Shown here piece by piece: positions 1-13,110 of a stretch of DNA of 13,110 nt (the first letter of the stretch is position 1; each line of letters starts with the position of its first letter). Location: the IMG/VR virus record IMGVR_UViG_2684622670_000001, positions 1 through 13,110 of that record; one strand, 5' to 3'. The notes under the pieces are model-generated. The model worked only from the letters and a program-made list of their open reading frames with translations. It was not told where the DNA came from and searched no databases. This DNA is from a virus (taxonomy: Duplodnaviria; Heunggongvirae; Uroviricota; Caudoviricetes). A program made the position numbers and the translations under genes.

Positions 1-51
1 ATTAGTATCGGAAACAGGAAAGGAAGGCGAAAGACGGTTTAAATGATGCGC

Positions 52-315
52 TTACCCCTCTGAAGCACTGTCGATTCTTCCAACCAATCCGGATGGAGAC
101 TGCCCATTCGCTCCTGAATACAAACAGGCGATATGGGCAACCAGCATATTCAGCAGCATTGAGCGTACAGCCAAATCCGACACACGACTTGAGTCTGTGT
201 TATCGAGATAAATGGTTGCTTGCGTGAAATACTGCTGAAGAAGTGCGTCGTCTACAGATGAGAATTCAGGATAGCGTAGCTTAAATGCGGAGGGGGCAAA
301 TATTACGACGCCCAT
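52..315 (-). CDS. Putative head completion / head-tail connector-like protein (DUF4054-like motif), 87 aa
   Basis: ORF with ATG at 315 preceded by GGGAG (spacing ~7). The motif '[26 protein letters not shown]' resembles DUF4054-type head proteins, and the gene sits downstream of the major capsid gene. Assignment is by motif recall only. Confidence 0.4.
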
Positions 316-327
316 TTGCTGCTCCCG

Positions 328-675
328 CTATTTTTCGTCAGCCTTTTTTACGCCCGGAGCCGGATTTTCCGGGTCAAGGCCTTCGAGGCCAGTTTTCGAT
401 TCTTTCAGATCTTTACCCTGCGCATTCAGACTGCGAATATCTTTCTGAATGAAGATTGCATTATTCTGAATATACGCGGCATCCTTATAGGTCTCGATGA
501 ACTTATCTATGAAGTCTTTCTCGACCATGGTAACTCCGAAAGCCCCCTCAGGAATTGCACCATCAAGACCACGGAGGGCGGTTGTTGCCGCCCCGTTCAG
601 GATTACTGTTTTGCCATCCAGAGTTACCTGAAGGCCATTTGGCAATTTGCAGCCAACGCTTACCATTTCTGCCAT
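328..675 (-). CDS. Hypothetical phage head-module protein, 115 aa
   Basis: ORF with ATG at 675 preceded by GGGAG (spacing ~8), starting 4 nt after the major capsid gene stop. No family recognised. Confidence 0.5.
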   Translation of the reverse strand: MAEMVSVGCKLPNGLQVTLDGKTVILNGAATTALRGLDGAIPEGAFGVTMVEKDFIDKFIETYKDAAYIQNNAIFIQKDIRSLNAQGKDLKESKTGLEGLDPENPAPGVKKADEK

Positions 676-678
676 GAA

Positions 679-1719
679 TTAAACTCCCAACATGCTTGCA
701 AATGCCAGCGGCTGGCGAATGATTGCGCCCCAGGTGCCACCGGTTTTCTTTTGTTTGTACGCGGACAGGTCAACAACAACCGGATGCGCACGCATTTTTT
801 CGGTAAATGCGCAGTAGCCGGTGTCCTGACCATCCAAATCGTCGGCGATCAACTGAACCAGTTCGCCGGATTCGGTTTTGTACTCGACAGCAGTAACAAC
901 GCGCAGGTTCGGGAAGTTTTTCTTCAGCTGATCAGACACGTTGACGTTGTACATGTTGGTCTTGGTCAGATTTGCTTCTGACTCTGGACTCATCGCCAGC
1001 GTCATCTTGCTGTCTCGCTCAACGTACCCCTTGGTCTGCTTCACTAACTGCATGTAAAGCGCCTGGATATCGTCATACACCGCCTGACCGTCTTTGGTTG
1101 CCCAGGTGGTTCCGCCGCTCGCACCAGTTGCACCCGGGGTGATTGATGCCGGAAGGTTAGGGTCATTCAGAATGCCGTAGTTCTTCAGGCCAGCAACGCC
1201 GAAGAAGTAGGACTTGTTCTGAAACTTATTCAGGGTCAGCGCAGAAGCAGTATTCAATTGTTGAGCCCATGCAATGCGGCCTTCACCGTAACGGTCAAGT
1301 TCCAGCTCACCCCACTGAGTAATGGTCTGGTACAGATAGGACTCACGAGCAACCCAGTTGACGTTAGCATTTACCTGCCCATTATTGTTGTAGTCACCAT
1401 AACTGGAAACCTGACCCGTTGATTCCACAACCGGGAATTGTGCGGTCATGGTGGTCCAGTCTCCCTTCTTCGTTTCCCCCAGAATTTCCACCGCTTTCAT
1501 CGGAGTGACAAGGATGCGAATCAGTTCCGGGTCAACGTAATTAGTGAAGTACCATGGAATGCCAGAGTTGCTGGTTGTTACCAGTGAAGGCTGAGAATCC
1601 ATTGCATAGGAATAGCTATTAGCAACAGCATCCGTCAGATAGGCTTTGGCTTCCGGAAGGATTACACCGTAATCTCGCTCAGCCATAGCTTTATGTTGTA
1701 AAAATTCTGCGTTATTCAT
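679..1719 (-). CDS. Major capsid protein (HK97-fold, DUF2184/encapsulin-like type), 346 aa
   Basis: ORF with ATG at 1719 and GGAG at -8. Size and position (after portal, Mu F-like, scaffold-like and a small Gly/Ala-rich protein) are typical of the major capsid gene. Family is inferred from synteny and composition, not a search. Confidence 0.7.
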
Positions 1720-1722
1720 GTA

Positions 1723-2202
1723 TTAGCTCCAGGTGCCCATCTGAATCAACTCGCCAGCCTCGCCAGCACTGCCAACAACAAATTTTGTTTCAACGTAATC
1801 CGAGATTGACGCCCCGGCATCGCCAGCGGTAATAGTTCCATCTGACAGTTTGGCGAAAATCTTCTGCCCTACAGTTGCCGCACCGGCCGTTTTCACCCAG
1901 TAGTCACCAGCAGTCATCAATGTCATCTGAACTCCAGGCTGAATAGTCATAGATGATTCACCAAGCCATGTGGTGACAGACGCCTGCCCTTCCCGATGAA
2001 CGAAACCGGCAGGAGCACCGGTTCCAGTGTTATTGACAACACCATTGCTTACCCATGCAAAGCGACCAACAACAACCCCATTTGCACCGGCAACAAGAGC
2101 TCCCTCACCTGCAAGAAGACTTGCTTTAGGGTTAGCCGAAGCGAAATCGCCCTCAACTCCCGGCGCCTGTTGCTGATTAATTACACTTTGAAAGCCACTC
2201 AT
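1723..2202 (-). CDS. Putative head decoration/cement-like structural protein (Gly/Ala-rich, DUF2190-like position), 159 aa
   Basis: ORF with ATG at 2202 and GGAG at -8. Gly/Ala-rich composition and position immediately upstream of the major capsid gene. Confidence 0.5.
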   Translation of the reverse strand: MSGFQSVINQQQAPGVEGDFASANPKASLLAGEGALVAGANGVVVGRFAWVSNGVVNNTGTGAPAGFVHREGQASVTTWLGESSMTIQPGVQMTLMTAGDYWVKTAGAATVGQKIFAKLSDGTITAGDAGASISDYVETKFVVGSAGEAGELIQMGTWS

Positions 2203-2205
2203 TTC

Positions 2206-3432
2206 TTAGCTCCGTTTCAGTTTAGTTGCGCCAGGAAATGCCTTGGCGAAAGAATTGGTTGCGGCAGCATCCATACCCATACCATGAGATGGTTTGCGAA
2301 CTACCGCTTTCTGGCTGATAGCAAATTCAACCATCGATTTAAGTGCTGAAGGATGAACGCCTTTATGTTCAGCACCAATTGAATCAAGAGCAAAGCGATA
2401 AATAGACTCTGCGGAATCCATAGCTACCAGACTCACATCACCAACCAAAGCGCGAACGCATTCTCGAGCCTCATTGGCTTGACGGATACGCCCCATCACA
2501 TTCTCTTCAGCTTTTCGAATTAATGCGGCATCCATAGCTGCTTTATTCTCATCATCGTCTTCATCCTCGGCAGTCTTTTTATCCTTGCCGTCATCATCTT
2601 CGTCTTCCGCTTCTTTGCGGTCACGATCGCGATCCTTTCGCTCACGTTCTTCACGCTCTTTTAGTTCATCCTCTTCACGTTTCAGACGCTCTGCTTCTGA
2701 CTCATTATCTCTCTCAGCCTGCGTGGCTTCGTCTTCAACAACCTTTTGCACTTTCTTTTCCACTTCTTCTGGCTTCTCATCACTTGCCAGCATCGGCGTG
2801 ATAACTGCCATCAACTTTTTAGTAAGTTCTGACATTGATTTCATTCCTGTTGGTATTGAATCCCCGACAACAACGTCGGATCCGGCTCTTCCCTCTGTTA
2901 CGAGAGCAACGTGGTTCCCGACGATATCGCGCATTACACCATCGTATGGCTGGCCTTCATGCACGCCGGGGGTCATGTCAGCTACATATCTGTAGGCCGA
3001 CGAAAGTTCTTTCTTCTCGTCTGTCTCGATTCCAGCGATAGAATCTGCGTCCCATACGACAAGCGAGTTCTTGAGATAAGTCCCGTCAAACTCAGCATCA
3101 GTACCAGTAGAACCAACCACAGCCATCTTCTGAGGGTCTGCAGCAGTAACCGGAATGTGTTCGTTAAGGAGCGGGATGTTGTTGAATGTAGATGCTGCTT
3201 TGGCTAACTCTTTCGGGTCACGAAGCAGGTAGTAAAACTTGTCAGGCTGTAAACCTAGCGATCTGTAATTAGGGATTTCACGCCCATAATAAGGGCAAAC
3301 GTTAGCCTTACTGATTGGCGTCACTTCGATATGCAAACGCCCATCCTTATCAAAGGAGCGCACCGTTGCCTTGTCGAATGCCAATCCGTGATATCCCCAT
3401 TGCCAGTCGCCTTTAACTTTGCGTAATGGCAT
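2206..3432 (-). CDS. Putative scaffold / prohead-processing protein (DUF2213-like N-terminal region) with a highly charged low-complexity central linker, 408 aa
   Basis: ORF with ATG at 3432. Central segment '[41 protein letters not shown]' is charged and low-complexity. Position between the Mu F-like gene and the decoration/capsid genes fits a scaffold role. Confidence 0.55.
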
Positions 3433-3452
3433 GCTTTTACCTTTCGGCAGGC

Positions 3453-3475
3453 AATAAAAAAGCCGCAGTAGCGGC
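3453..3475 (-). terminator. Hairpin (GCCGC-UACU-GCGGC) followed by UUUUUUAUU; candidate weak intrinsic terminator/attenuator
   Basis: Seen directly on the minus strand: 5-bp GC stem, 4-nt loop, U-tract. It overlaps a 13-codon mini-ORF (3437..3478) that has a strong SD (AAGAGGA). Confidence 0.3.
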
Positions 3476-3566
3476 CATTATTTCCTCTTGGACATAGCTA
3501 TTTTCAGTAGTGCAATCATTAAGCAACCAAAAATCAACACTAATCCCAGAGACCATAAAACCTCAA

Positions 3567-4385
3567 TCATTTTCTATCTATCCCAGGGATAACAGGAGAC
3601 CACGTACAACGGCAGTTGATAGCCTCTCCCGGCAGCACCCATTCACCATCAAGATACAGCCCTTTATCGAGGTCGAACTCTTTACCGTCAGCTTTCACAT
3701 GGGATGGCCTTGGCTGCTTCCCGGCGTGTGAGTGACGCCAGATTCCTTTGGTGATGCCTAACTTCTTCTGCCGTTCAGACTGAATTACCGCTGTAGCTTT
3801 GTTGTTCTGATCGCGTGCGATCGTCTCAGCGCGTCTGCGTGTAATGCCATATCGCTTAACCAGTTCATCAGTGAGATAGCCAAGGTCACGACCACGGCTG
3901 ACAGACTGCATGACTATCGTCTCAACCTGTGTGTGATAGTGTTCAGGTATGGATTTAATCAGGTTGACGTTCTCGTTAACGACAGCCTGCATCACGTTCT
4001 TAAGCTCGTCATTCATTGTGAACTTAACGGTAAATCCGCCAGCCTTTAACGCTGAGTGTAACGAAACGTCGGTGTTGCGCAGTGTCTTATCAACGAAGCG
4101 ATCAGCTAGTTTCTTAGCCAGTTCATTGAATTTATGCTCCCACTGCTTGCCTAGTCTTGACAATCTGCGCTTTAACTCATTCGCAGGACTGGAATCCATC
4201 GCCATGTTGTTTTTGTATGCGCCCTCAAGCCAGTATCGGTATGACTTATCCATCTCCCTAACCAGTTTAAGAAGCTCAGAGCGATACCACTCATGAACTC
4301 CGGCGTTAGCTCTTACTGGACGAAGGGTTTTCCGGGTCTTCGAATCCTTCTTCGATGGACTCGTTTTCGTACTCTTCTTCGTCAT
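3567..4385 (-). CDS. Head morphogenesis protein, SPP1 gp7 / Mu F-like, 272 aa
   Basis: ORF with ATG at 4385. C-terminal '[19 protein letters not shown]' matches the conserved Mu F-like C-terminus, and the gene follows the portal gene. The 5' end overlaps the portal 3' end by 80 nt, so the true start is uncertain. Confidence 0.7.
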
Positions 4386-5841
4386 ATTCAGATTCCATCA
4401 TGTGGTATGGGCTGGCCTTATCCGACTGGCGCATGCTTCTTATTGCATCAAGATCGAACACGCCAGCTTCGGCATAGTTCTTGTCAGCCTCAGACTGATG
4501 TTTCATGATCTCGGCTTTCTCTGCTTCTGTAAGCTCATACAGAGGCAGGAACTCAAAATCAATGTCAGGGTCAATCTCGCCAAATTCGTTTAACTGGATA
4601 ACATCCAGTACTGTTTTCAGTGGTACTCTGAACAGATTCTCCTGCATGGCGTGGATTGAGTCATAGAAGACGCGGATTTCTCCATCAGATGACGCGTTTA
4701 GCCCGTTAGGAGTGATGCCAAGGAGCTTAACCAGGGGAATGCTTGATACCGATGCCATTTGTTCCTGCGCTTGCGCCTGAAGAGCATCAACTCCGGACAG
4801 ACTTGTCACAAACTGGAAGAATTCTTCTCCATCCTTATCAATAAGGAACATTCCGCGATTGTCGCGAACCTTATTGAATAGCTCGGCACGCATAAACAGG
4901 TTTGGGTCTGCAATTCCAGACAAGGCATTCTGCATGTTCGTCTTCAGCCCGTGGACCACAAACGAATGAACCAGATCGCTAACGCTGTCACGTGTTCTCA
5001 GCCAGTTCTGCACATATGGCTCTGCCATCTGACTCAGCGACAAGCCGCCGAAGTTGTACGCCGCTTTGAGAATGTCTGGCACCTGGCGAGAAATCATTGT
5101 CAACATGCGACTGGCGTGAACCGTGCGCCCCATGACATACCATTCAGATGGATTGAAGAAGTCAGGGCTTAGAGGATTGTCAGCGTTATACACGCCCGGG
5201 TAAGTCCACATGGCTTCGATAACGCGGAAACCATTCAGGCTTCCTTTGGTAATCTTGCGCGGACTGATATAGAGCTTCTTATCCAGTTCGTCGGGAACCA
5301 GCCAGGCTGAGTTACCGCTTGGCGTCTTCACGTCGATATAAATCTGTCCGCGCCCGAAGTAACCGTCATGTTCCGCCGCCTCGCGAAACTTCTCTCGCAC
5401 TCTGAAACGCTTTAATGCGTCGTCAAGCTGGCGAATCTTATCGGCCTTGTCGTCACCATCGTCTTTACCTACATGCTTCAGCTCAATCCATTTTCGCGTC
5501 ATCTCTTCTGCTATCGTGCCAGTAATCTTGCGATACTCCGGCAACTGAGCAAGTTGAGACAGATATGGGTAGCCGGGAAATCCACCGTAGCCATATGCGG
5601 TGATGTTTGCTGAGTTAAGGTAACTGTACGGCGTGGAGTCCATCGCCAGAGCTGACTCCCCAATATGTTCAGGAATAACGCCTGGCGGGGGTACGTATCT
5701 CTCAATTCTGCGCAATGCCTCGCCTTCATTTTTAATTCGCTCCTGTTCGTTAATAATCGCAAGAACATTCGCCAGAGACATTGGCTGTTTCGCCTCTTCT
5801 TTCTGAGGCTCAGATTTTTTCTTTCTCAAAAAATTAAACAC
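4306..5841 (-). CDS. Portal protein (DUF1073-like), ~511 aa
   Basis: Large ORF immediately downstream of the large terminase gene, with an acidic C-terminal tail. The longest ORF starts with GTG at 5841 (GAGG ~8 nt upstream); the first ATG is 20 codons downstream at 5781. Confidence 0.7.
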
Positions 5842-7361
5842 TATGCGAGCCTCAAAAGGTCTTCAGATATACGTAACGGACCATTGCCATTTTTCATCTC
5901 ATCGATGGCATCCATCATCGGATCAAGCTGGTCGTCGTGCGTATTGAAATCAGGATTAATGGCTTCCATCTCAACGAGGAAGTCGTTGATGAATGGTGCG
6001 CTGCTGGGCAACTTGATGTAACCGGACTCGATATAACCCTGTACGTCCATCAGTCGTGTGTACTTATCCTTATCGCGCTGAATTGCTTTGATGGGGCATA
6101 TCGCTTTTTTTCGGATGTTCTGTATCAGGCCTGTGCCAGATGACTTGTCCTCTATCGCCATATGGCGAAGCGGCCCATTCTTCAGAGTTTTGCACTTTTC
6201 CCAGAATGCAACAGCACGGCGTTGTAATTCATCGGCCTCCCATTTACCGCGAATCATATCGATCAGATAGATGTACCCGTCAGTACCAAGCCCCCAGTGC
6301 TCGAATACTGAGAAGTCGTTGACCTCTTTTGTTTTCTGTGCGGTGTCTCCATAGACGGCACGCCATTGCATGGGAGGGAGTACCGAATATTCACCAAACC
6401 ATTCAGACTTAATAAGCCCCCCGCCTTTGGCGGTTGGTCGTTGCTGATAAAGGGCATTCCATACAAGAGAACCGCGCTGTTTGCACTTCTCTACGAACTC
6501 TCTCGGCATGCGCTCAGGAAACAGAATTTCACCGGGATTGCGCAGTCGATACACATTACCGTTGAGTTCATGAATCTCTTCCTTTTCAGCCTCCATTGGG
6601 AAGCTAACTACGCGCCAGCGTTCCCCGCCCTCTTCAGCTAGTTTTAATAACTGTCCGGCGAGATCGTTTTGATGCCAGCGTGTCAGGATGATGACAATTC
6701 CGTTTATCTTCGGGTCAACACGAGTGAAGAATGTCGTGTCATACCAGTCCATCACCGCTTCCTGGTAAGTTGGAGACGATGCGGTTTTGTAATCTTTCGC
6801 GGGGTCATCAATAACCCCAATGTTCATACCCTGCCCGGTGATGCCACCGTTAACACCAGCAGAACGATATGAGCCGCCGTGTAGTTCGCCTTTGGCATCA
6901 ACTGGTTCCCATAGCTCGGTTTTGTTGATACCTCCCGCCAAACTGCGTCCTGAAGGTATTTTCACGTCAGGGAAAACATCAGCGTACTTATCAGAGGTGA
7001 TAATGCGTTTAACGTCACGGCTCATTCGGTCTGACAGGTCAGAAGAATATGAGCACGAGATAATGTTCCATGATGGATGATGTCCTAACACATACGCTGG
7101 GAAGCGGCGAGAGCACAACTCACTCTTTCCTGAGCGCGGAGGGGCAAACACCATTAGCCTGGGCATGTTTCCGGCTTTAACTTCATCCAGAAAGTGATCT
7201 AGCTCAGCACAAAGCAGCTCGTTAAACCAACCTGTTTCGTATTGCGGATTAGTGTACAAAGTGAAATCGAGAAGGTTTTTTCTTGCTGAGCGGATAGCCA
7301 GCTCTTTGTGCAACTCATAAATCTGAGCGTTTCGATTCAAGCTGATTGGAGCGCCTGCCAT
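5841..7361 (-). CDS. Terminase large subunit, ~506 aa from the first ATG
   Basis: Walker A-like '[10 protein letters not shown]' near the N-terminus; size ~500 aa; follows the small terminase gene. First ATG at 7361 is preceded by AAGGAA; the track ORF begins with TTG at 7367. Overlaps the small terminase 3' end by ~47 nt. Confidence 0.8.
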
Positions 7362-7905
7362 TACCAAGTTCCTTCAGTTTCTCTTCAAGTAACTCTTCTG
7401 ACATATCGGCATAACGAACAGGCCCACCATCAGCGCCAGTTATTTCTGTAGATGTTTGCTCTTTAAACGCCTGAACAGAAACATGCTTACCAAGAAGTTC
7501 GAGATTTTTGACTTTATCAGGCCATTTAATTTTCTTCAGAAGTGCGGCGCTATCTGCGGATACCATCTCCACGACATCCATTCCTGATAGCGTTGTGCGC
7601 CATACCTTAGGCCAGTCTTTGATGGGTTTTAACTCACCGTTTTGCAGGAGAATGTCGAGCACATCCATCTGGTCGATTTCAACCAATCTACGAAGAACAT
7701 AGGCTGCATCTATGCCAGTCTGTTCAACGCGGGCGGATTTAAGTTCAGCAACGAATTTTTGAACATTAACATTTGCTAATAATCGAGATGCCTGCTCATT
7801 GGCGGTCTTCTCGCTGTAGCCCGCCCTGATCGCTGCCTGTGTTCCGTTCAGATCTTTCAGGTACTCACGGGCAAACAGCTCTTGTTTGTCGGTGAGCCTT
7901 GCCAT
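7315..7905 (-). CDS. Terminase small subunit (Terminase_2-like HTH N-terminus), 196 aa
   Basis: N-terminal 'LTDKQELFAREYLKDLNGTQAAIRAGYSEKTANEQASRLL' is the characteristic small-terminase HTH motif. ATG at 7905 with GGAG ~9 nt upstream; sits directly upstream of the large terminase gene. Confidence 0.75.
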   Translation of the reverse strand: MARLTDKQELFAREYLKDLNGTQAAIRAGYSEKTANEQASRLLANVNVQKFVAELKSARVEQTGIDAAYVLRRLVEIDQMDVLDILLQNGELKPIKDWPKVWRTTLSGMDVVEMVSADSAALLKKIKWPDKVKNLELLGKHVSVQAFKEQTSTEITGADGGPVRYADMSEELLEEKLKELGNGRRSNQLESKRSDL

Positions 7906-8036
7906 TATTTGTGCTCCGTTTATCCGTTAAAAGGGATATCAGTTAAGTTATCCCGTGTAGGGTATAAGCCATTATCAAGCCCACCAGTAGATGGGCTTTG
8001 TAATGGAGAGCCGTTGTGAAAGTGGCTCTCAGACTG

Positions 8037-8240
8037 TCATTTTTTCCCTTTCTGTTTACCTGCCCACTGTTTTGCAATGTACAGGCAGTCATCGAAAATT
8101 CGGCCTTTTCTGCTGGCTTGTGAACAACGGCGGTAATGTTCCACCGCCATGTCAGCGCCAGTCATAGCCGCGTTTTGGTCGTATCCAAGCTTTATTAACT
8201 CGGTTGTTACATTTTTATGTATGAAATCAATCGGAGTCAT
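8037..8240 (-). CDS. Hypothetical small protein, 67 aa (accessory cassette, second gene)
   Basis: ORF with ATG at 8240 overlapping the upstream gene stop (ATGA), suggesting translational coupling. No family recognised. Confidence 0.5.
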   Translation of the reverse strand: MTPIDFIHKNVTTELIKLGYDQNAAMTGADMAVEHYRRCSQASRKGRIFDDCLYIAKQWAGKQKGKK

Positions 8241-8833
8241 GCTGGTTTACCATCAGGGAAATCCCCCATGTCACATAGCTTGAACTGAATCAGATCCTTC
8301 ACAAGCTGCTCAGCCTTTTTAATGGCCCTCTTCTCTTTCTTCCGACGAGTCATGAGAGCGCTACCTGCTTGACCGTGCATTTCAAATGAGAACTTCTCAG
8401 CAGCCGCGACACGGTTTTGCATTTCGCTGATTGCCATATCGGTCAGGCCAGAGAAATCGAGGAGGTTAATGTCCTTCCCACCCTCAAGCTCAGTCATGTG
8501 GTCATACACCTGCGCCTGAAGCTCATAGCTGTAGCTCATTGCCATGAGGCAAGCTTCACGCTTGGGAAAATTGCAAATATCCCTCTCCACAACACCACCT
8601 GTTCCGTTGATATAGGTATCAGTTGCAAAAAATTTTGCAGCTGCATCCCCGAGAACCTTGGGTACTTTCTTCATGAAACTGCGGTGTTCGAGTTTGCGAT
8701 ATTTCTTACAGGGGAACGCAAGCCCCTCCGCCTCCGCTTTGGATTTCCGATCAGCATTAATGTAATCCACCATCTCAAGACTGCTCATGGTCGGGTATTC
8801 GCCAGAAGGAAGAACGGTTAATGATTTGTTCAT
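8237..8833 (-). CDS. Putative Rha-family-like phage regulatory protein, 198 aa (accessory cassette, first gene)
   Basis: ORF with ATG at 8833 and AAGGAA ~8 nt upstream. N-terminal region ('TMSSLEMVDYIN ... KLEHRSFMKKVPKVL ... REACLMAMSYSYELQAQVYDHM') loosely fits the Phage_pRha pattern as I recall it. C-terminal ~90 aa unassigned. Confidence 0.45.
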   Translation of the reverse strand: MNKSLTVLPSGEYPTMSSLEMVDYINADRKSKAEAEGLAFPCKKYRKLEHRSFMKKVPKVLGDAAAKFFATDTYINGTGGVVERDICNFPKREACLMAMSYSYELQAQVYDHMTELEGGKDINLLDFSGLTDMAISEMQNRVAAAEKFSFEMHGQAGSALMTRRKKEKRAIKKAEQLVKDLIQFKLCDMGDFPDGKPA

Positions 8834-8978
8834 GTCGGTATTTCCTTTAGAAAGTTGAGCCTGTTCGCACAGAAAAGCCGTCCCCGAGAGGTCCTCACCT
8901 ATACGGCAGTTCTCAGGCTCAGCTTTCTGAAAGACTCGGGATTGTTACGCGCTGCGATACGCTGTGAAATTCAGATGT

Positions 8979-9003
8979 AAAAAAAGCCCCGCATCGCGAG
9001 GCT
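8979..9003 (-). terminator. Intrinsic terminator-like hairpin plus U7 downstream of Rz
   Basis: Minus strand reads AGCCUCGC-GAU-GCGGGGCU followed by UUUUUUU: an 8-bp stem (one G-U pair) with a run of seven U. Confidence 0.5.
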
Positions 9004-9034
9004 CATTAAATTGACTTTGTGATTTGCAAAAAAA

Positions 9035-9472
9035 TTATTTCAGGCATTGCGTCCTGATATATTCCTGCAGGTAGTTAACCTGCGCGGTTATCCTGTCGAT
9101 TCCACTTCGGAGACGGTAATAATTGAGTTCAGCATCTGCTGTAAGTCTTGGGCTTTCTCCATCGCCCATGCTGCTGGCTCCGGTCGTTGACTTTGCACAG
9201 GTGGCGGCGACTTGCAGGCGCTTACGACCAGCAGAAACATCAGCACGGAGACTTTCGATAGTCGCGTTAGCATCAGCAAGCTCCTTTGTGTATCTGGCAT
9301 CGAGTTCTGCTACGTCACGTTGACGCTTCTGCATGTCAGCGATGATGGATGTGGCTTTATCGCGCTGTTCTTTGTAGGCGATTGCATTATCACGGTAATG
9401 ATTAACAGCCCATGACAGGCAAACGATGATGCAGATAACCAGAGCGGAGATAATCGCGGTTACTCTGCTCAT
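9035..9472 (-). CDS. Rz: Rz i-spanin (inner-membrane spanin subunit), 145 aa
   Basis: First ~31 aa ('[31 protein letters not shown]') match lambda Rz as recalled; the rest is a divergent Rz-like coiled-coil region. ATGA overlap with the R stop; Rz1 is embedded in the +1 frame. Confidence 0.85.
9088..9273 (-). CDS. Rz1: Rz1 o-spanin (outer-membrane lipoprotein), ~61 aa from Met10 of the embedded ORF
   Basis: Embedded entirely within Rz in another frame. Signal peptide with lipobox ('[20 protein letters not shown]') followed by a proline-rich mature region ('[16 protein letters not shown]'). The start choice (Met10 versus Met1 at 9300) is inferred. Confidence 0.7.
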
Positions 9473-9945
9473 ACCTCAATCTCTCTGACCGTTCCGCCTG
9501 CTTCTTTGAATTTTGCAATCAGGCTGTCAGCCTTATGCTCGAACTGACCATAACCAGCGCCCGGCAGTGAAGCCCAGATATTGCTGCAACGGTCAATTGC
9601 CTGACGAATATCACCGCGATCAATCATCGGTAAAGCGCCACGTTCTTTAATCTGTTGCAATGCCACAGCGTCCTGGCTTTTCGGAGAGAAGTCTTTCAGG
9701 CCAAGCTGCTTACGGTAGGCATCCCACCAACGGGAAAGAAGCTGGTAACGTCCGGCGGCTGTTGATTTGAGTTTGGGGTTTAGCGTGACAAGTTTGCGAG
9801 GGTGATCGGAGTAATCAGTGAATAGCTCTCCGCCAACAATGACGTCATAACCATGATTTCTGGTTTTCTGTCGTCCGTTATCAGTTCCCTCTGACCACGC
9901 CAGCATATCGAGGAACGCCTTACGTTGATTATTGATTTCCACCAT
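9469..9945 (-). CDS. R: Endolysin R (lambda-type lytic transglycosylase), 158 aa
   Basis: Protein '[39 protein letters not shown]...' matches lambda R as recalled. 17-nt overlap with S and ATGA overlap with Rz, as in lambda. Confidence 0.95.
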
Positions 9946-10252
9946 CTTCTACTCCGGCTTTTTTAGCAGCGAAGCGTTTGATAAGCGAACCAATCGAGTC
10001 AGTACCGATGTAGCCGATGAACACGCTCGTTATATAAGCGAGATTGCTACTTAGTCCGGCGAAGTCGAGAAGGTCACGAATGAACCAGGCGATAATGGCG
10101 CACATCGTTGCGTCGATTACTGTTTTTGTAAACGCACCGCCATTATATCTGCCGCGAAGGTACGCCATTGCAAACGCAAGGATTGCCCCGATGCCTTGTT
10201 CCTTTGCCGCGAGAATGGCGGCTAACAGGTCATGTTTTTCTGGCATCTTCAT
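9929..10252 (-). CDS. S: Holin S (class I; S107 antiholin / S105 holin dual-start), 107 aa
   Basis: Protein '[39 protein letters not shown]...' matches lambda S as recalled, including the Met1-Lys2-Met3 dual-start motif. Confidence 0.95.
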
Positions 10253-10578
10253 GTCTTACCCCCGATAAGGGGATTTGCTCTATTTAATTAGGAATAAGGT
10301 CGGTTACTGATAGAACAAATCCAGGCTACTGTGTTTAGTAATCAGATTTGTTCGTGACCGATATGCACGGGCAAAACGGCAGGAGGTTGTTAGCGCAACC
10401 TCTTGCCACCCGCTTTCACGAAGTCAGCCATTGCGCTGGTTTTCTTTTATGCAAAGCACACCGCACCGTAGCCACAGCGGATAAGGTGATTGTTTTGTAT
10501 GCTTTGTGTTTGGTTGATTATGTATTTCAGAAATGTTGTGCTAATGTTGTCATTCATATAAAGAAGGATTAAACACAA

Positions 10579-10758
10579 ATGAATGACTTTGACACAAGAA
10601 GGCTCCACGCAATCCATATGTTACTTCAAGAGATCTCTGATAAAACCTTGCAAATAGCCATGTCAACGCACTCTGATGAAAACAAGAAAAGTCTTATCAC
10701 ACCACTAATGAAAAGACATGCGGATCTAGTCGCTGAATTTCAGGAACTATTGAAATAA
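10579..10758 (+). CDS. Candidate small ORF (59 aa) on the opposite strand within the Q-S intergenic region
   Basis: ATG at 10579 preceded by AAGAAGGA (spacing ~10); 59 codons ending in TAA; lies in an AT-rich stretch that does not overlap any minus-strand gene. Just below the 60-aa cutoff of the supplied ORF track. No family recognised. Confidence 0.35.
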   Translation: MNDFDTRRLHAIHMLLQEISDKTLQIAMSTHSDENKKSLITPLMKRHADLVAEFQELLK

Positions 10759-10761
10759 TTA

Positions 10762-10789
10762 AATACCCACACAGAGATACGGGGGTATT
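10762..10789 (-). terminator. Hairpin (AAUACCC ... GGGUAUU) with U-rich 3' side on the minus strand; candidate tR'-like terminator of the late leader transcript
   Basis: 7-bp perfect inverted repeat with a 14-nt loop, followed on the minus strand by UAAUUAUUUC. It lies at the 3' end of the lambda-like 6S-leader segment and immediately after the stop of the plus-strand 59-aa ORF. Confidence 0.35.
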
Positions 10790-10949
10790 AGTTACCACAT
10801 TAGCAACTTTATTGCGTCAATATTTGCAAACCTCTCAGCCCGCGATGGTTGGAGTTCCAGACGATACGTCGAAGTGACCAACTAGGCGGAATCGGTAGTA
10901 AAGCGCCGCCTTTTTTCATCTCACTACCACAACGAGCGAATTAACCCAT

Positions 10950-11114
10950 CTATCCCATACTGGAGAATTCACCATGATATTTTATCCTGGCATTTTCCAT
11001 TGCCTTTCTAGCCTCCTCGATATCGTCAAAACACCCTACATGAATCCTCCATGTAAGAATTCCAGTATCTGGATTGTAATTAAAAAGTCTCAATGCATCT
11101 TCACGTTTTAACAT
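10950..11114 (-). pseudogene. Degraded HNH-AP2 homing endonuclease remnant (54-codon ORF)
   Basis: Translation 'MLKREDALRLFNYNPDTGILTWRIHVGCFDDIEEARKAMENARIKYHGEFSSMG' joins an HNH_3-type N-terminal motif ('LFNYNPDTGILTW') directly to an AP2-type C-terminal tail ('GCFDDIEEARKAMENARIKYHGEF'), with no catalytic core between them. Sits in an AT-rich insertion with a weak RBS. Confidence 0.45.
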
Positions 11115-11300
11115 AGGCGAACCACATAGATATTAGAGCCTGCTGACATAGAAATATCACCACGAGAGAAGTCGCCAAAAGCGATATTTCTCAGGCTCTA
11201 TTCCTATGTGCTCTCGAGTTTATGATGCGCATGTCAGTGCGCTTAGAACTTAAAGATGAGGTGGGTAAAAGCTGAAAGAATGTGAACGGATATAAATCTG

Positions 11301-11343
11301 CCATTCTTGGGTCAAATTTACCCAACTTTATTCAAATAGTCAA
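11301..11343 (-). promoter_or_regulatory. Late promoter pR' with qut/Q-binding region and promoter-proximal pause element
   Basis: Minus strand reads TTGACT (11343..11338), a 17-nt spacer, TAAATT (11320..11315), then TGACCCAAGAATGG. This closely matches the lambda pR' sequence as recalled (TTGACTTATTGAATAAAATTGGGTAAATTTGACTCAACGATGG). Located ~45 nt downstream of the Q stop. Confidence 0.75.
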
Positions 11344-11385
11344 TATTATGCCGTTAATATGTTGCCATCCGTGGCAATCATGCTG

Positions 11386-12009
11386 CTAACGTGTGACCGC
11401 GTTCAAAATGTTGTCTGCGATTGACTCTTCCTTGTGGCATTGCACCACCAGAGCGTCATACAGCGGCTTAACAGTGCGTGACCAGGTGGGTTGGGTAAGG
11501 TTTGGGATTAGCATCGTCACAGCGCGATATGCGGCGCTTGCTGGCATTCTTGAATAGCCGACACCTTTGCATCTTCCGCACTCTTTCTCAACAACTCTCC
11601 CCAATTGCTCTGTTTTTGATATATCAACCGCACGGCCTGTACCGTGGCAATCTCTGCATCTTGCGCCCGGCGTCGCGGCACTACGGCAATAATCCGCATA
11701 AGCGAATGTTGCGAGCACTTGCAGTACCTTTGCCTTAGTATTTCCTTCAAGCTTTGCCACACCACGGTATTTCCCCGATACCTTGTGTGCAAATTGCATC
11801 AGATAGTTGATAGCCTTTTGTTTGTCGTTCTGGTTGAGTTCATGCTTACCACAGAATGCAGCCATTCCGAATCCGGCTTGTGATTGCGCCATCCCCATAG
11901 CAGCCATCACATCAGTACCGGAAAGAGAGTCAGAAGCCGTAGCCCGTGGTGAGTCGCTCATCATCGGGCTTTTTGGCGAATGAAATTTAGCTACGCTTTC
12001 GAGTCTCAT
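11386..12009 (-). CDS. Q: Late gene antiterminator Q (lambda-type), 207 aa
   Basis: Protein 'MRLESVAKFHSPKSPMMSDSPRATASDSLSG ... CRDCHGTGRAVD ... CGRCKGVGYSR ... NILNAVTR' matches lambda Q as recalled, including the zinc-binding Cys motif. ATGA overlap with ninH. Confidence 0.95.
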   Translation of the reverse strand: MRLESVAKFHSPKSPMMSDSPRATASDSLSGTDVMAAMGMAQSQAGFGMAAFCGKHELNQNDKQKAINYLMQFAHKVSGKYRGVAKLEGNTKAKVLQVLATFAYADYCRSAATPGARCRDCHGTGRAVDISKTEQLGRVVEKECGRCKGVGYSRMPASAAYRAVTMLIPNLTQPTWSRTVKPLYDALVVQCHKEESIADNILNAVTR

Positions 12010-12194
12010 CGTCTTCCCCTCTTGCCCTGTTTGACCATCAGGACGCCGTTAACTATTACATGACGCTCGCCTTTGCTGTCTCTGTTGTACTTGAGCACTG
12101 TTCCTCTTGCGCAGGAAAGCATCCTCGCCACTTCGGTCTGATTGCCTCGTGTCTGGATAAGAAGCTCTGGTATCGTTTGAATTGTGGCGTTCAT
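12006..12194 (-). CDS. ninH: NinH-like protein, 62 aa
   Basis: 'TIPELLIQTRGNQTEVARMLSCARGTVLKYNRDSKGERHVIVNGVLMV' resembles lambda NinH ('TIPDMLVEAYGNQTEVARRLKCSRGTVRKY...') as recalled. Positioned immediately upstream of Q. Confidence 0.8.
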   Translation of the reverse strand: MNATIQTIPELLIQTRGNQTEVARMLSCARGTVLKYNRDSKGERHVIVNGVLMVKQGKRGRR

Positions 12195-12553
12195 ACGTTC
12201 TCCAGTTCGGTGATTTTTATTCCAAGCCGTCCGCCTGGTACTTTCACACCACGAATTACGCGAATGTCATCGAATTGCTCGTCGTCTTCCGCAAATCCGG
12301 CGTGGATAAGGGAGTCGAGTAAACCTTTCAGGATGTTATCGAGGTCGCGGCGGCGGGAGTCTGGAACGTCTGCGATGACTTTGATGCGGAGTCGTGATTT
12401 GGTGAAAATGTCTAACTTGAGTTGGCGGATGATTTGCTGAACGTCTTTTCGGTATTTCTGGCCTTTATCGCTGATGTAGTATTGTCTTCCCCGTCTTCGC
12501 CAGTAGGTATTCACCGACGGCGGGTATGGAAGCACAAACTGATATTCGTTCAT
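12191..12553 (-). CDS. rusA: RusA-family Holliday junction resolvase, 120 aa
   Basis: Conserved RusA motifs 'DVPDSRRRDLDN' and 'GGRLGIKITE'; 120 aa; nin-region location; ATGA overlaps on both sides. Confidence 0.85.
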   Translation of the reverse strand: MNEYQFVLPYPPSVNTYWRRRGRQYYISDKGQKYRKDVQQIIRQLKLDIFTKSRLRIKVIADVPDSRRRDLDNILKGLLDSLIHAGFAEDDEQFDDIRVIRGVKVPGGRLGIKITELENV

Positions 12554-12840
12554 GACTTAATCTTCCCCTCCTTCAGTAGTATCGCCTGCGTCCTGATCAC
12601 GCCTTCGAGGTGGTAAAGTCTGGCGTCTTTGTTGTCGATATTATGGGTACGTCGGTCGATTTCATCGTGACACGCGCTACAAGCCCATGCGCCGATCAGG
12701 TCGTCAGGCTTCATTCCCGTTCCGCAAATTCCAGCCATCCGGTAATGTGCCAGAACTGTAGTTTCAGGATTGCCATTGCATACGCCGTAAATACGTACCT
12801 GGCATTCTCTGCCGCGCGCTTCTTTGCGTAGGTTAGCCAT
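12550..12840 (-). CDS. ybcO: YbcO-like putative nuclease (DUF1364), Cys-rich, 96 aa
   Basis: 'RGRECQVRIYGVCNGNPETTVLAH ... CSACHDEIDRRTH' matches the YbcO/DUF1364 family as recalled; located directly upstream of rusA as in DLP12-type nin regions. Confidence 0.65.
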   Translation of the reverse strand: MANLRKEARGRECQVRIYGVCNGNPETTVLAHYRMAGICGTGMKPDDLIGAWACSACHDEIDRRTHNIDNKDARLYHLEGVIRTQAILLKEGKIKS

Positions 12841-13059
12841 TTAATACTCCAGTTCAGGGGCATTTTTTAGGTCATGTTTTTTGCAGAATTGCTGCCACTC
12901 TCTTTCCAGCCGCTTACCTGTAAATTTCACTCTGCATTTTGAGTAAGTGCTAATGGCATTAAATGGTGCTGAGCCTTCAGGAAATCGAGAGCGGAATACT
13001 TCTGCCACAGGTACTAAAACCAAATACAAATAATCAGAGCTACTAAACGAATCACTCAT
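12841..13059 (-). CDS. Hypothetical nin-region protein, 72 aa
   Basis: ORF with ATG at 13059 and GAGGAA ~7 nt upstream; ends 1 nt before the ybcO-like start. No family recognised. Confidence 0.5.
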   Translation of the reverse strand: MSDSFSSSDYLYLVLVPVAEVFRSRFPEGSAPFNAISTYSKCRVKFTGKRLEREWQQFCKKHDLKNAPELEY

Positions 13060-13110
13060 CGTCTTCTTCCTCGTGCATCGAGCTATTCGGATCGCTCATC
13101 AGTTCTGCGC
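13052..13110 (-). CDS. 3' end of an upstream nin-region ORF (partial; 5' end outside the window)
   Basis: Open frame running from the window edge to TGA at 13052..13054 (C-terminus '...ELMSDPNSSMHEEEDDE'), overlapping the next start by 8 nt. Identity unknown. Confidence 0.3.
   Translation of the reverse strand, partial: AELMSDPNSSMHEEEDDE

Follow-up and report, generated by a model that had tools for sequence, protein, structure and literature searches.

What do two small overlapping genes do between the lysis and packaging genes of a lambdoid phage, and how would their expression be controlled? The question is raised by positions 7906-9034 of a stretch of 13,110 nucleotides (nt), hereafter the window, which corresponds to positions 1 to 13,110 of the IMG/VR virus record IMGVR_UViG_2684622670_000001 (Caudoviricetes) and in which the initial annotation had recognised a pair of genes for proteins of 198 and 67 amino acids (aa). 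We propose, with moderate confidence and from sequence comparison and structure prediction, that this interval carries a local allele of the rha locus, accessory to the phage and placed in a Q-dependent late operon, whose expression would be gated by a leader RNA and whose two products would work as a protein pair. The rha locus itself is known; the version found here has a dedicated small partner gene and a leader RNA that appears undescribed, and it is the latter that merits follow-up. The three elements at the center of this model are as follows.

8237..8833, minus strand: 198-aa open reading frame (ORF), its start ATG at 8833 backed by the fixed distance between Shine-Dalgarno (SD) sequence and AUG in the leader and by full-length homologues
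8037..8240, minus strand: 67-aa ORF for a basic, predicted three-helix protein of PHROG 4439, its ATG overlapping the upstream stop, backed by homologues and purifying selection
8834..8962, minus strand: conserved structured 5' leader RNA of ~130 nt, scored at 137 bits by the covariance model R1

The 198-aa gene, its kinship with rha and its small partner

The family of the 198-aa protein comprises 2108 database matches, enterobacterial and often named 'Rha family transcriptional regulator' at NCBI. Its profile matches phi80 Rha over residues 45-179 (119 columns, probability 92.8%, E value 3.9e-7), in line with the Rha likeness noted in the initial annotation, and its C-terminal region, which had been called unassigned there, is homologous to that of phi80 Rha (38% identity, E value 3e-6 by BLASTP). 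Weak matches to PF09669 were obtained for 23 of 46 close relatives (best E value 6.7e-6) and some database relatives carry a precomputed match to this family, whereas the N-terminal domain encoded in the window is too divergent to match alone. The AlphaFold model (predicted local distance difference test, pLDDT, 72.8) displays a winged-helix-like N-terminal domain at residues ~18-117 followed by an antiparallel helical hairpin at residues 128-187 and a tail ending ...LCDMGDFPDGKPA. For the two proteins of the pair, searches of PDB sequences with single sequences and with profiles returned nothing meaningful, the best matches being designed ankyrins and an immunity repressor at E values above 0.01. 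By eye, the C-terminal module had seemed related to the ORF11CD3 domain, but this found no support, as hhalign against P22 Rha revealed no similarity.

The rha genes of phi80 and P22 both lie directly after Rz/Rz1, and both are preceded by the leader (169.8 and 74 bits, respectively). Profile homology to phi80 Rha and this identical position together argue that the 198-aa gene is no new kind of cargo but a divergent allele of the non-essential locus known as rha in phi80 and P22. The resemblance to both prototypes extends to the upstream terminator and to a size of 184-201 aa, and for phi80 Rha to the homology described above; on the other hand, the coupled 67-aa gene is found in the window cassette and in neither prototype, and the C terminus of P22 Rha is an ORF11CD3 domain. 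The phi80 gene is annotated 'DNA synthesis inhibition in IHF- hosts', and the rha product has been described, from genetics only, as blocking phage growth in IHF-deficient hosts (PMC4936722, which cites Mozola and Friedman 1985 and Henthorn and Friedman 1995).

Is the unit accessory, as the initial annotation had proposed? DNA searches reveal a mosaic in which only ~200 nt before the ATG of the 198-aa gene and ~100 nt before terS are widely common to related phages. Matches to the interval were found in 160 phage records, none of them covering 80% of it, and the content of this slot varies among otherwise related phages. Among 5426 complete Escherichia coli genomes, part of the interval is matched in 2629 and the whole cassette in 17, in one case within a P22-like prophage with another packaging module, and a homologous gene pair follows Rz/Rz1 in Erwinia phage Midgardsormr38. 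The view of an accessory two-gene unit in a variable Rz-to-terminase slot is thus upheld.

The initial annotation had left room for a 67-aa ORF that is not conserved in related phages. We found 33 clusters of its family at 90% identity, and an exhaustive profile search extended the family to 102 (~100) representatives at 50% identity, nearly all of them small stand-alone proteins. Purifying selection is apparent against locus L055 (nonsynonymous rate dN 0.07, synonymous rate dS saturated), and dN lies far below a mostly saturated dS in both genes of the pair. The protein is confidently predicted to be a three-helix bundle (pLDDT 85) with generic fold matches. It remains, as annotated, outside any characterised family: scans of Pfam, NCBIfam and PADLOC gave only a sub-threshold match to RMF, and PHROG 4439 is recorded as of unknown function. 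As a side observation, residues 1-31 (window 8150-8240; TPIDFIHKNVTTELIKLGYDQNAAMTGAD) resemble the ankyrin-repeat consensus, with weak matches to designed ankyrins (E value 0.015) and matches of several stretches to long repeat proteins, yet the predicted fold is simply that of three helices in a bundle.

The two ORFs overlap in an ATGA motif, made up of the ATG of the 67-aa ORF (8240-8238) and the TGA stop of the 198-aa ORF (8239-8237). Among 80 IMG/VR loci with a homologue of the 67-aa gene, 52 have it directly after a gene that carries the C-terminal module of the 198-aa protein; the N terminus of this upstream gene is of the Rha type in 33 loci and of the Bro-N type in 19, and the 4-nt overlap is kept in nearly all of them. 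As the initial annotation had supposed, the two genes are therefore almost certainly translationally coupled. Conversely, the 67-aa gene follows in 58 of 78 loci with a gene of the 198-aa family, in which a G[DN]FP motif in the tail associates with presence of the partner (odds ratio 6.8, p 0.003). Since the 67-aa gene follows the C-terminal module behind either type of N terminus, the two products probably form a protein pair built on this module.

Two observations concern the small gene outside this arrangement. In some loci (L102 at 3620-4217, and L132 and L142 of IMG/VR) the 198-aa gene is frameshifted or truncated and the 67-aa gene is intact, which hints that the small gene can persist without a functional upstream partner. 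A distant subfamily of 81-90 aa and 45-55% identity (L125, L127, L128 and IMG/VR L174-L211) lies in the early-right operon after a cII-like gene (PF05269), in prophages of Serratia, Gilliamella and other hosts and in 17 IMG/VR loci.

The leader RNA, its copies and its surroundings

What precedes the 198-aa gene is a fold of five helices with an additional long-range pairing between loop and tail, in which the SD sequence lies inside helix P1. All its parts are on the minus strand.

8962-8949: P0 hairpin
8941-8935 with 8888-8882: PKa and PKb, long-range pairing of the 5' tail with the apical loop
8934-8923 with 8854-8843: P1, holding the SD sequence AAAGGA at 8848-8843
8920-8914 with 8863-8857: P2
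8913-8910 with 8874-8871: P2b
8907-8903 with 8881-8877: P3
8899-8890: P4 mini-hairpin, optional among copies
8870-8864: 7-nt bulge

The pairing is maintained across extensive sequence change. For P1, 24 distinct combinations of strand sequences were examined, and in each of them the 3' strand, with the SD sequence, pairs with its 5' counterpart. Immediately 5' of P1, a run of 6-8 nt can pair with the apical loop in 47 of 47 sequence types, with 16 different PK helix sequences, every one of them complementary. A plain MAFFT alignment gave 88.4% of paired positions against 81.4% in shuffles (reached by 0 of 500), and a model-based alignment of 67 distinct sequences gave 93.2% of cells paired against 83.6%. 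In the latter set, both sides had changed in 31 of 40 pairs where 18.4 were expected (0 of 500 shuffles reached this value), the covariation score was 0.288 against 0.126 in shuffles, and slid controls were paired at 37-54%. The loop-to-tail pairing is outside the model, yet covariation is seen in each of its six pairs. Copies that the sequence pattern missed and the model recovered have compensated changes in PK and even in P2 (two copies in L123, one in L124, P22, the second phi80 copy, and a copy after Q in L001). Model scores were 100-170 bits for sense-strand matches against 18-35 for antisense ones, and G-U pairing is common, which argues for RNA rather than DNA as the conserved form; the distance from SD to AUG is fixed across copies.

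The leader is apparently undescribed so far. Neither the two window copies nor the two phi80 copies nor those of L123 had a match in Rfam 15 at an E value ≤ 1, and the literature searched, to which the 1995 rha paper did not belong, makes no mention of an RNA element ahead of rha. Several other identities were considered and set aside. The core motifs of the hammerhead or other known ribozymes do not fit and Rfam finds nothing; no match to the IHF consensus WATCAANNNNTTR was seen by eye; and a sigma-70 promoter can hardly be the cause of P0 conservation, since the arrangement in question (TTCACA-N16-TATTAA/AACAAT) is confined to some of the copies and would remove PKa, a strand that covaries.

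More than 100 copies were recovered by a pattern scan of IMG/VR. The first genes behind them are of at least 12 unrelated kinds, including Rha, KilA-N, ANT, T5orf172/MUG113 and HNH_3 genes and a membrane protein gene, and the interval from terminator to ATG is kept in phi80 and even in Erwinia phage Midgardsormr38. In E. coli K-12, a search of prophages DLP12 and Qin with the covariance model yielded no copy, so that K-12 transcript maps cannot help. The window itself holds a further copy.

11112..11262, minus strand: second, divergent leader copy, R1 67.3 bits, E value ~1e-16

This copy keeps P1 and the PK pairing (CGAGAG/CUCUCG) with different sequences. It extends to the ATG of a truncated 54-aa ORF (10950-11114) resembling the N terminus of an HNH_3 endonuclease gene; a full-length HNH_3 relative stands behind a leader in locus L120. 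Compared with lambda, the second leader and the 54-aa ORF form a clean insertion of 355 nt (10952-11306, minus strand) just after the -10 region of pR', and the lambda-like transcribed leader (6S region) resumes immediately afterward. Such a discrete insertion argues that the leader moves together with its gene.

Further observations were made on individual copies. Several phages carry two leaders, each before a different accessory gene (among them L031 at 3245-3370 and L005 at 8502-8625). The second copy of phi80 (L003, 4141-4278) precedes PHI80_66, a protein like gp59 of N15, and the Edwardsiella hoshinae locus L123 has tandem copies at 1970-2116 and 2283-2434, ~300 nt apart. In P22 (L292, NC_002371), the leader spans 1982-2147 and the annotated rha start (2076) falls inside it; the conserved SD-AUG end indicates an ATG at 2145, 23 codons downstream, so that the annotated N terminus of P22 Rha may be too long. 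Spurious-looking N-terminal extensions likewise occur in some IMG/VR relatives.

Around these elements, the late region of the window is lambdoid and lies on the minus strand, in the order Q (11386-12009), holin, lysozyme, Rz/Rz1 (9035-9472), the ORF pair, terminases, portal and head genes. The immediate neighbors of the pair are Rz (PF03245, E value 2e-36) and Rz1 upstream and the small terminase gene (7315-7905; PF03592, E value 8e-38) downstream. Hairpin regions had been reported on both sides of the cassette in the initial annotation, and both are present.

8979..9004, minus strand: intrinsic-terminator-like hairpin GAGCCUCGCGAUGCGGGGCUU with a 7-U run, directly after Rz; stem of 9 pairs, 6 of them G-C
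7933..8030, minus strand: conserved 3' flank with three hairpins, recognised by folding against shuffles

The upstream terminator consists of a stem-loop at 9004..8984 and a U run at 8985-8979; the same element is annotated as a terminator in phi80 and stands before most leader copies. The fold of 7900-8045 places the 3' hairpins at ~8030-8006, 8005-7970 and 7954-7933, with an energy of -43.9 kcal/mol against -25.7 +/- 3.1 kcal/mol in shuffles (z = -5.9; none of 200 as good). The last of them (GGGAUA...UAUCCC, then UUUU) is weakly terminator-like, and the terminator scan made no call there. Parts of this flank are kept in 176 phage records, including HK97, HK106, Sf6, mEp235 and P22-like phages. 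It is conserved whatever cargo precedes it and is a candidate 3' stabiliser, terminator or recombination joint. Promoter-like sites in the interval number 2, where 1.7 are expected by chance; one of them, at 8968..8941, is a weak 9-of-12 match, not above chance, that overlaps P0. The variable slot is of the kind that a moron would occupy, an autonomous transcription unit set between conserved genes, and for a promoter and a terminator of its own these sites and the 3' hairpins are the candidates. Farther upstream, the stretch 10440-10860 diverges from lambda between the 6S region and the pre-holin sequence, and a 59-aa ORF within it (10579-10758, plus strand, no family match) may be another small inserted gene.

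Proposed expression of the cassette and alternative explanations

We propose the following sequence of events. The cassette would be transcribed from pR' with read-through of the terminator after Rz. In the leader, the pairing of the SD sequence of the 198-aa gene within P1 would gate translation or keep it low. Because the PK tail abuts the base of a hairpin of ~28 bp whose loop it must reach, its pairing is probably incompatible with the full P1-P2 stem, and a two-state switch seems most likely, in which an SD-open pseudoknot would be the first to fold as the RNA is transcribed, and an SD-closed hairpin of greater stability would form later. The 198-aa protein would be a Rha-type winged-helix DNA-binding protein, from its predicted fold and its homology to phi80 Rha, and its C-terminal helical hairpin probably serves oligomerisation. 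The 67-aa protein, made by translational coupling, probably binds or modulates the C-terminal module or the tail of its partner, with which it is co-inherited across domain swaps. More generally, leader and gene would constitute a mobile regulatory cassette that brings diverse DNA-binding and nuclease genes into late transcripts, and the likeliest role of the leader is that of a translational gate on such genes.

Several points weigh against this account. The 198-aa protein of the window itself has no sequence match in Pfam (for PF09669, none at an E value ≤ 1), NCBIfam or PDB, hhalign detects no similarity between it and P22 Rha, and we know of no biochemical role assigned even to the Rha prototypes. 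Twenty of the 78 members of the 198-aa family have no 67-aa partner, and the distant relatives of the 67-aa protein, between cII-like and replication genes, have no Rha-like gene nearby. The mutual exclusion of PK and P1 is a geometric argument rather than a computed result, and the promoter-like site at 8968..8941, if active, would yield transcripts devoid of part of PKa.

A bolder version of our model, which we put forward only tentatively, is that the leader represents a new class of pseudoknot riboregulator, i.e., a kinetic or effector-dependent two-state switch or conceivably a processing element, gating mobile Rha, KilA-N, Bro-N, ANT, HNH and GIY-YIG-like genes in lambdoid late transcripts, travelling with them and perhaps acting as the cis element of the long-known IHF-dependent rha control, with the 198-aa and 67-aa proteins forming a complex through the GDFP-tail module. 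The other explanations considered are all unlikely and are taken here in descending order of probability.

The pair could be a phage-exclusion or abortive-infection module, in which the 198-aa protein would inhibit phage DNA replication and the 67-aa protein would be its cognate neutraliser, conferring self-immunity. The phi80 rha annotation and the growth block in IHF-deficient hosts (PMC4936722) fit such a role, as does the precedent of BstA, which provides prophage defence with self-immunity and whose KilA-N domain places it in the same network of domains (PMC8585504); the tight coupling, the small second gene and the association between tail and partner resemble a toxin-antidote arrangement. 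Nevertheless, neither protein matches PADLOC-DB 2.0 at an E value ≤ 1, the self-immunity of BstA is a DNA element and not a protein, and the partner is absent from the minority of family members counted above. The pair also lies behind a terminator in a Q-dependent late operon and lacks a convincing own promoter, which argues against the lysogen expression that defence needs. Given this position and the PADLOC result, the hint at lysogenic conversion or anti-defence in the initial annotation gained no ground: no lysogenic-conversion, defence or anti-defence signature was found for the pair. We thus consider an exclusion module improbable.

Slightly less probable in our view is that the small gene acts independently, as an accessory gene that merely travels with the Rha-like gene and forms no functional pair with it. 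The solitary occurrence of its family after cII-like genes, in prophages of Serratia and Gilliamella and in the 17 IMG/VR loci, speaks for independence, as do the 20 loci in which a gene of the 198-aa family lacks it. However, the small gene stays attached by the ATGA overlap to the C-terminal module through the exchange of Rha-type for Bro-N-type N termini, the tail motif associates with its presence, and the stand-alone relatives belong to a more distant and longer subfamily.

A doubtful alternative, ranking just below, is that the 198-aa protein is an antirepressor like P22 Ant, inactivating the CI-type repressor of its own or of a co-resident prophage. It matches PHROG 63 'anti-repressor Ant' (E value 7e-11), tblastn and BFVD searches return proteins annotated as antirepressors, and the RefSeq label of P22 rha is 'anti-repressor'. 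These labels nevertheless stem from common N-terminal DNA-binding domains and not from tests, and the matched part is the winged-helix region; moreover, the Pfam scan did not find the ANT/KilAC domain (PF03374), and expression only after Q action would come too late to induce the own prophage.

Finally, it appears very improbable that the leader is conserved as DNA, whether to link recombining segments or to bind a protein, in the manner of mosaic-phage boundary sequences, and has no RNA function: its place exactly at a mosaic joint, with phage-to-phage homology ending at the start codon, its repetition within single genomes (the window, phi80 and L123) and the precedent of the PeSL cassettes of T4-type phages (PMC2839356) would suit it, but the compensatory double changes, the many G-U pairs, which the complementary strand would carry as A-C mismatches, the strong strand asymmetry of the scores and the fixed distance to SD and AUG speak against it. 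A DNA-level role is not exclusive of an RNA role.

Significance and comparison with known systems

The SD-burying fold gives a concrete starting point for testing how lambdoid phages may hold in check accessory genes of the late operon that could do harm. To our knowledge, the regulation and the biochemical role of the rha locus, known since 1985, are still unexplained. Besides a dozen unrelated accessory genes, the rha genes of phi80 and P22 have this fold, which is widespread in enterobacterial prophages.

Four known systems bear comparison with the cassette. As the 198-aa protein would, BstA (PMC8585504) binds DNA, is encoded by a prophage, belongs to this domain network and interferes with phage replication, and the idea of cognate self-protection is similar; BstA differs in having no sequence similarity to it in PADLOC, another genomic location and an immunity element that is DNA inside the bstA gene. 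Like PeSL elements, which consist of a promoter and a terminator stem-loop and act at the level of DNA and transcription (PMC2839356), the leader is a short conserved regulatory motif, repeated within a genome, that flanks variable non-essential genes at mosaic joints; the window and phi80 hold two copies each and L123 has a tandem pair, and the leader moves with its gene. The difference lies in its covariation at the RNA level and in a multi-helix fold that includes the SD sequence. Since this fold marks the 5' edge of a mobile cassette, it bears on the exchange of cargo in mosaic phage genomes.

A parallel at the RNA level is provided by the SD-sequestering leaders of T4 homing endonuclease genes, free-standing or intron-encoded, e.g., I-TevI, reportedly described by Gott et al. 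in 1988 and by Gibb and Edgell in 2010. In both cases, the gene concerned is selfish or accessory and embedded in a longer phage transcript, and a hairpin hides its ribosome-binding site; nuclease genes of the HNH_3 and T5orf172 (GIY-YIG-like) types are among the cargo of the leader found here. In contrast to those hairpins, this leader is one complex fold with a long-range tertiary pairing, common to many unrelated genes, and we identified no internal late promoter that would bypass its hairpin.

At the protein level, the comparison is with the domain-shuffling network of phage 'antirepressor-like' proteins (Bro-N, KilA-N, Rha, ANT and T5orf172) that Iyer, Koonin and Aravind are said to have described in 2002. 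The cassette resembles it in combining an N-terminal DNA-binding domain with an exchangeable C-terminal module, which is found also behind a Bro-N domain in Edwardsiella and in IMG/VR loci, and the cargo of the leader is drawn from this network. It departs from it in its C-terminal module, a helical hairpin with a GDFP tail, for which Pfam holds no matching family and which is accompanied by a small partner gene dedicated to it. The linkage of the 67-aa gene to this exchangeable module makes the pair a candidate two-protein unit within a large and poorly understood family of 'antirepressor-like' proteins.

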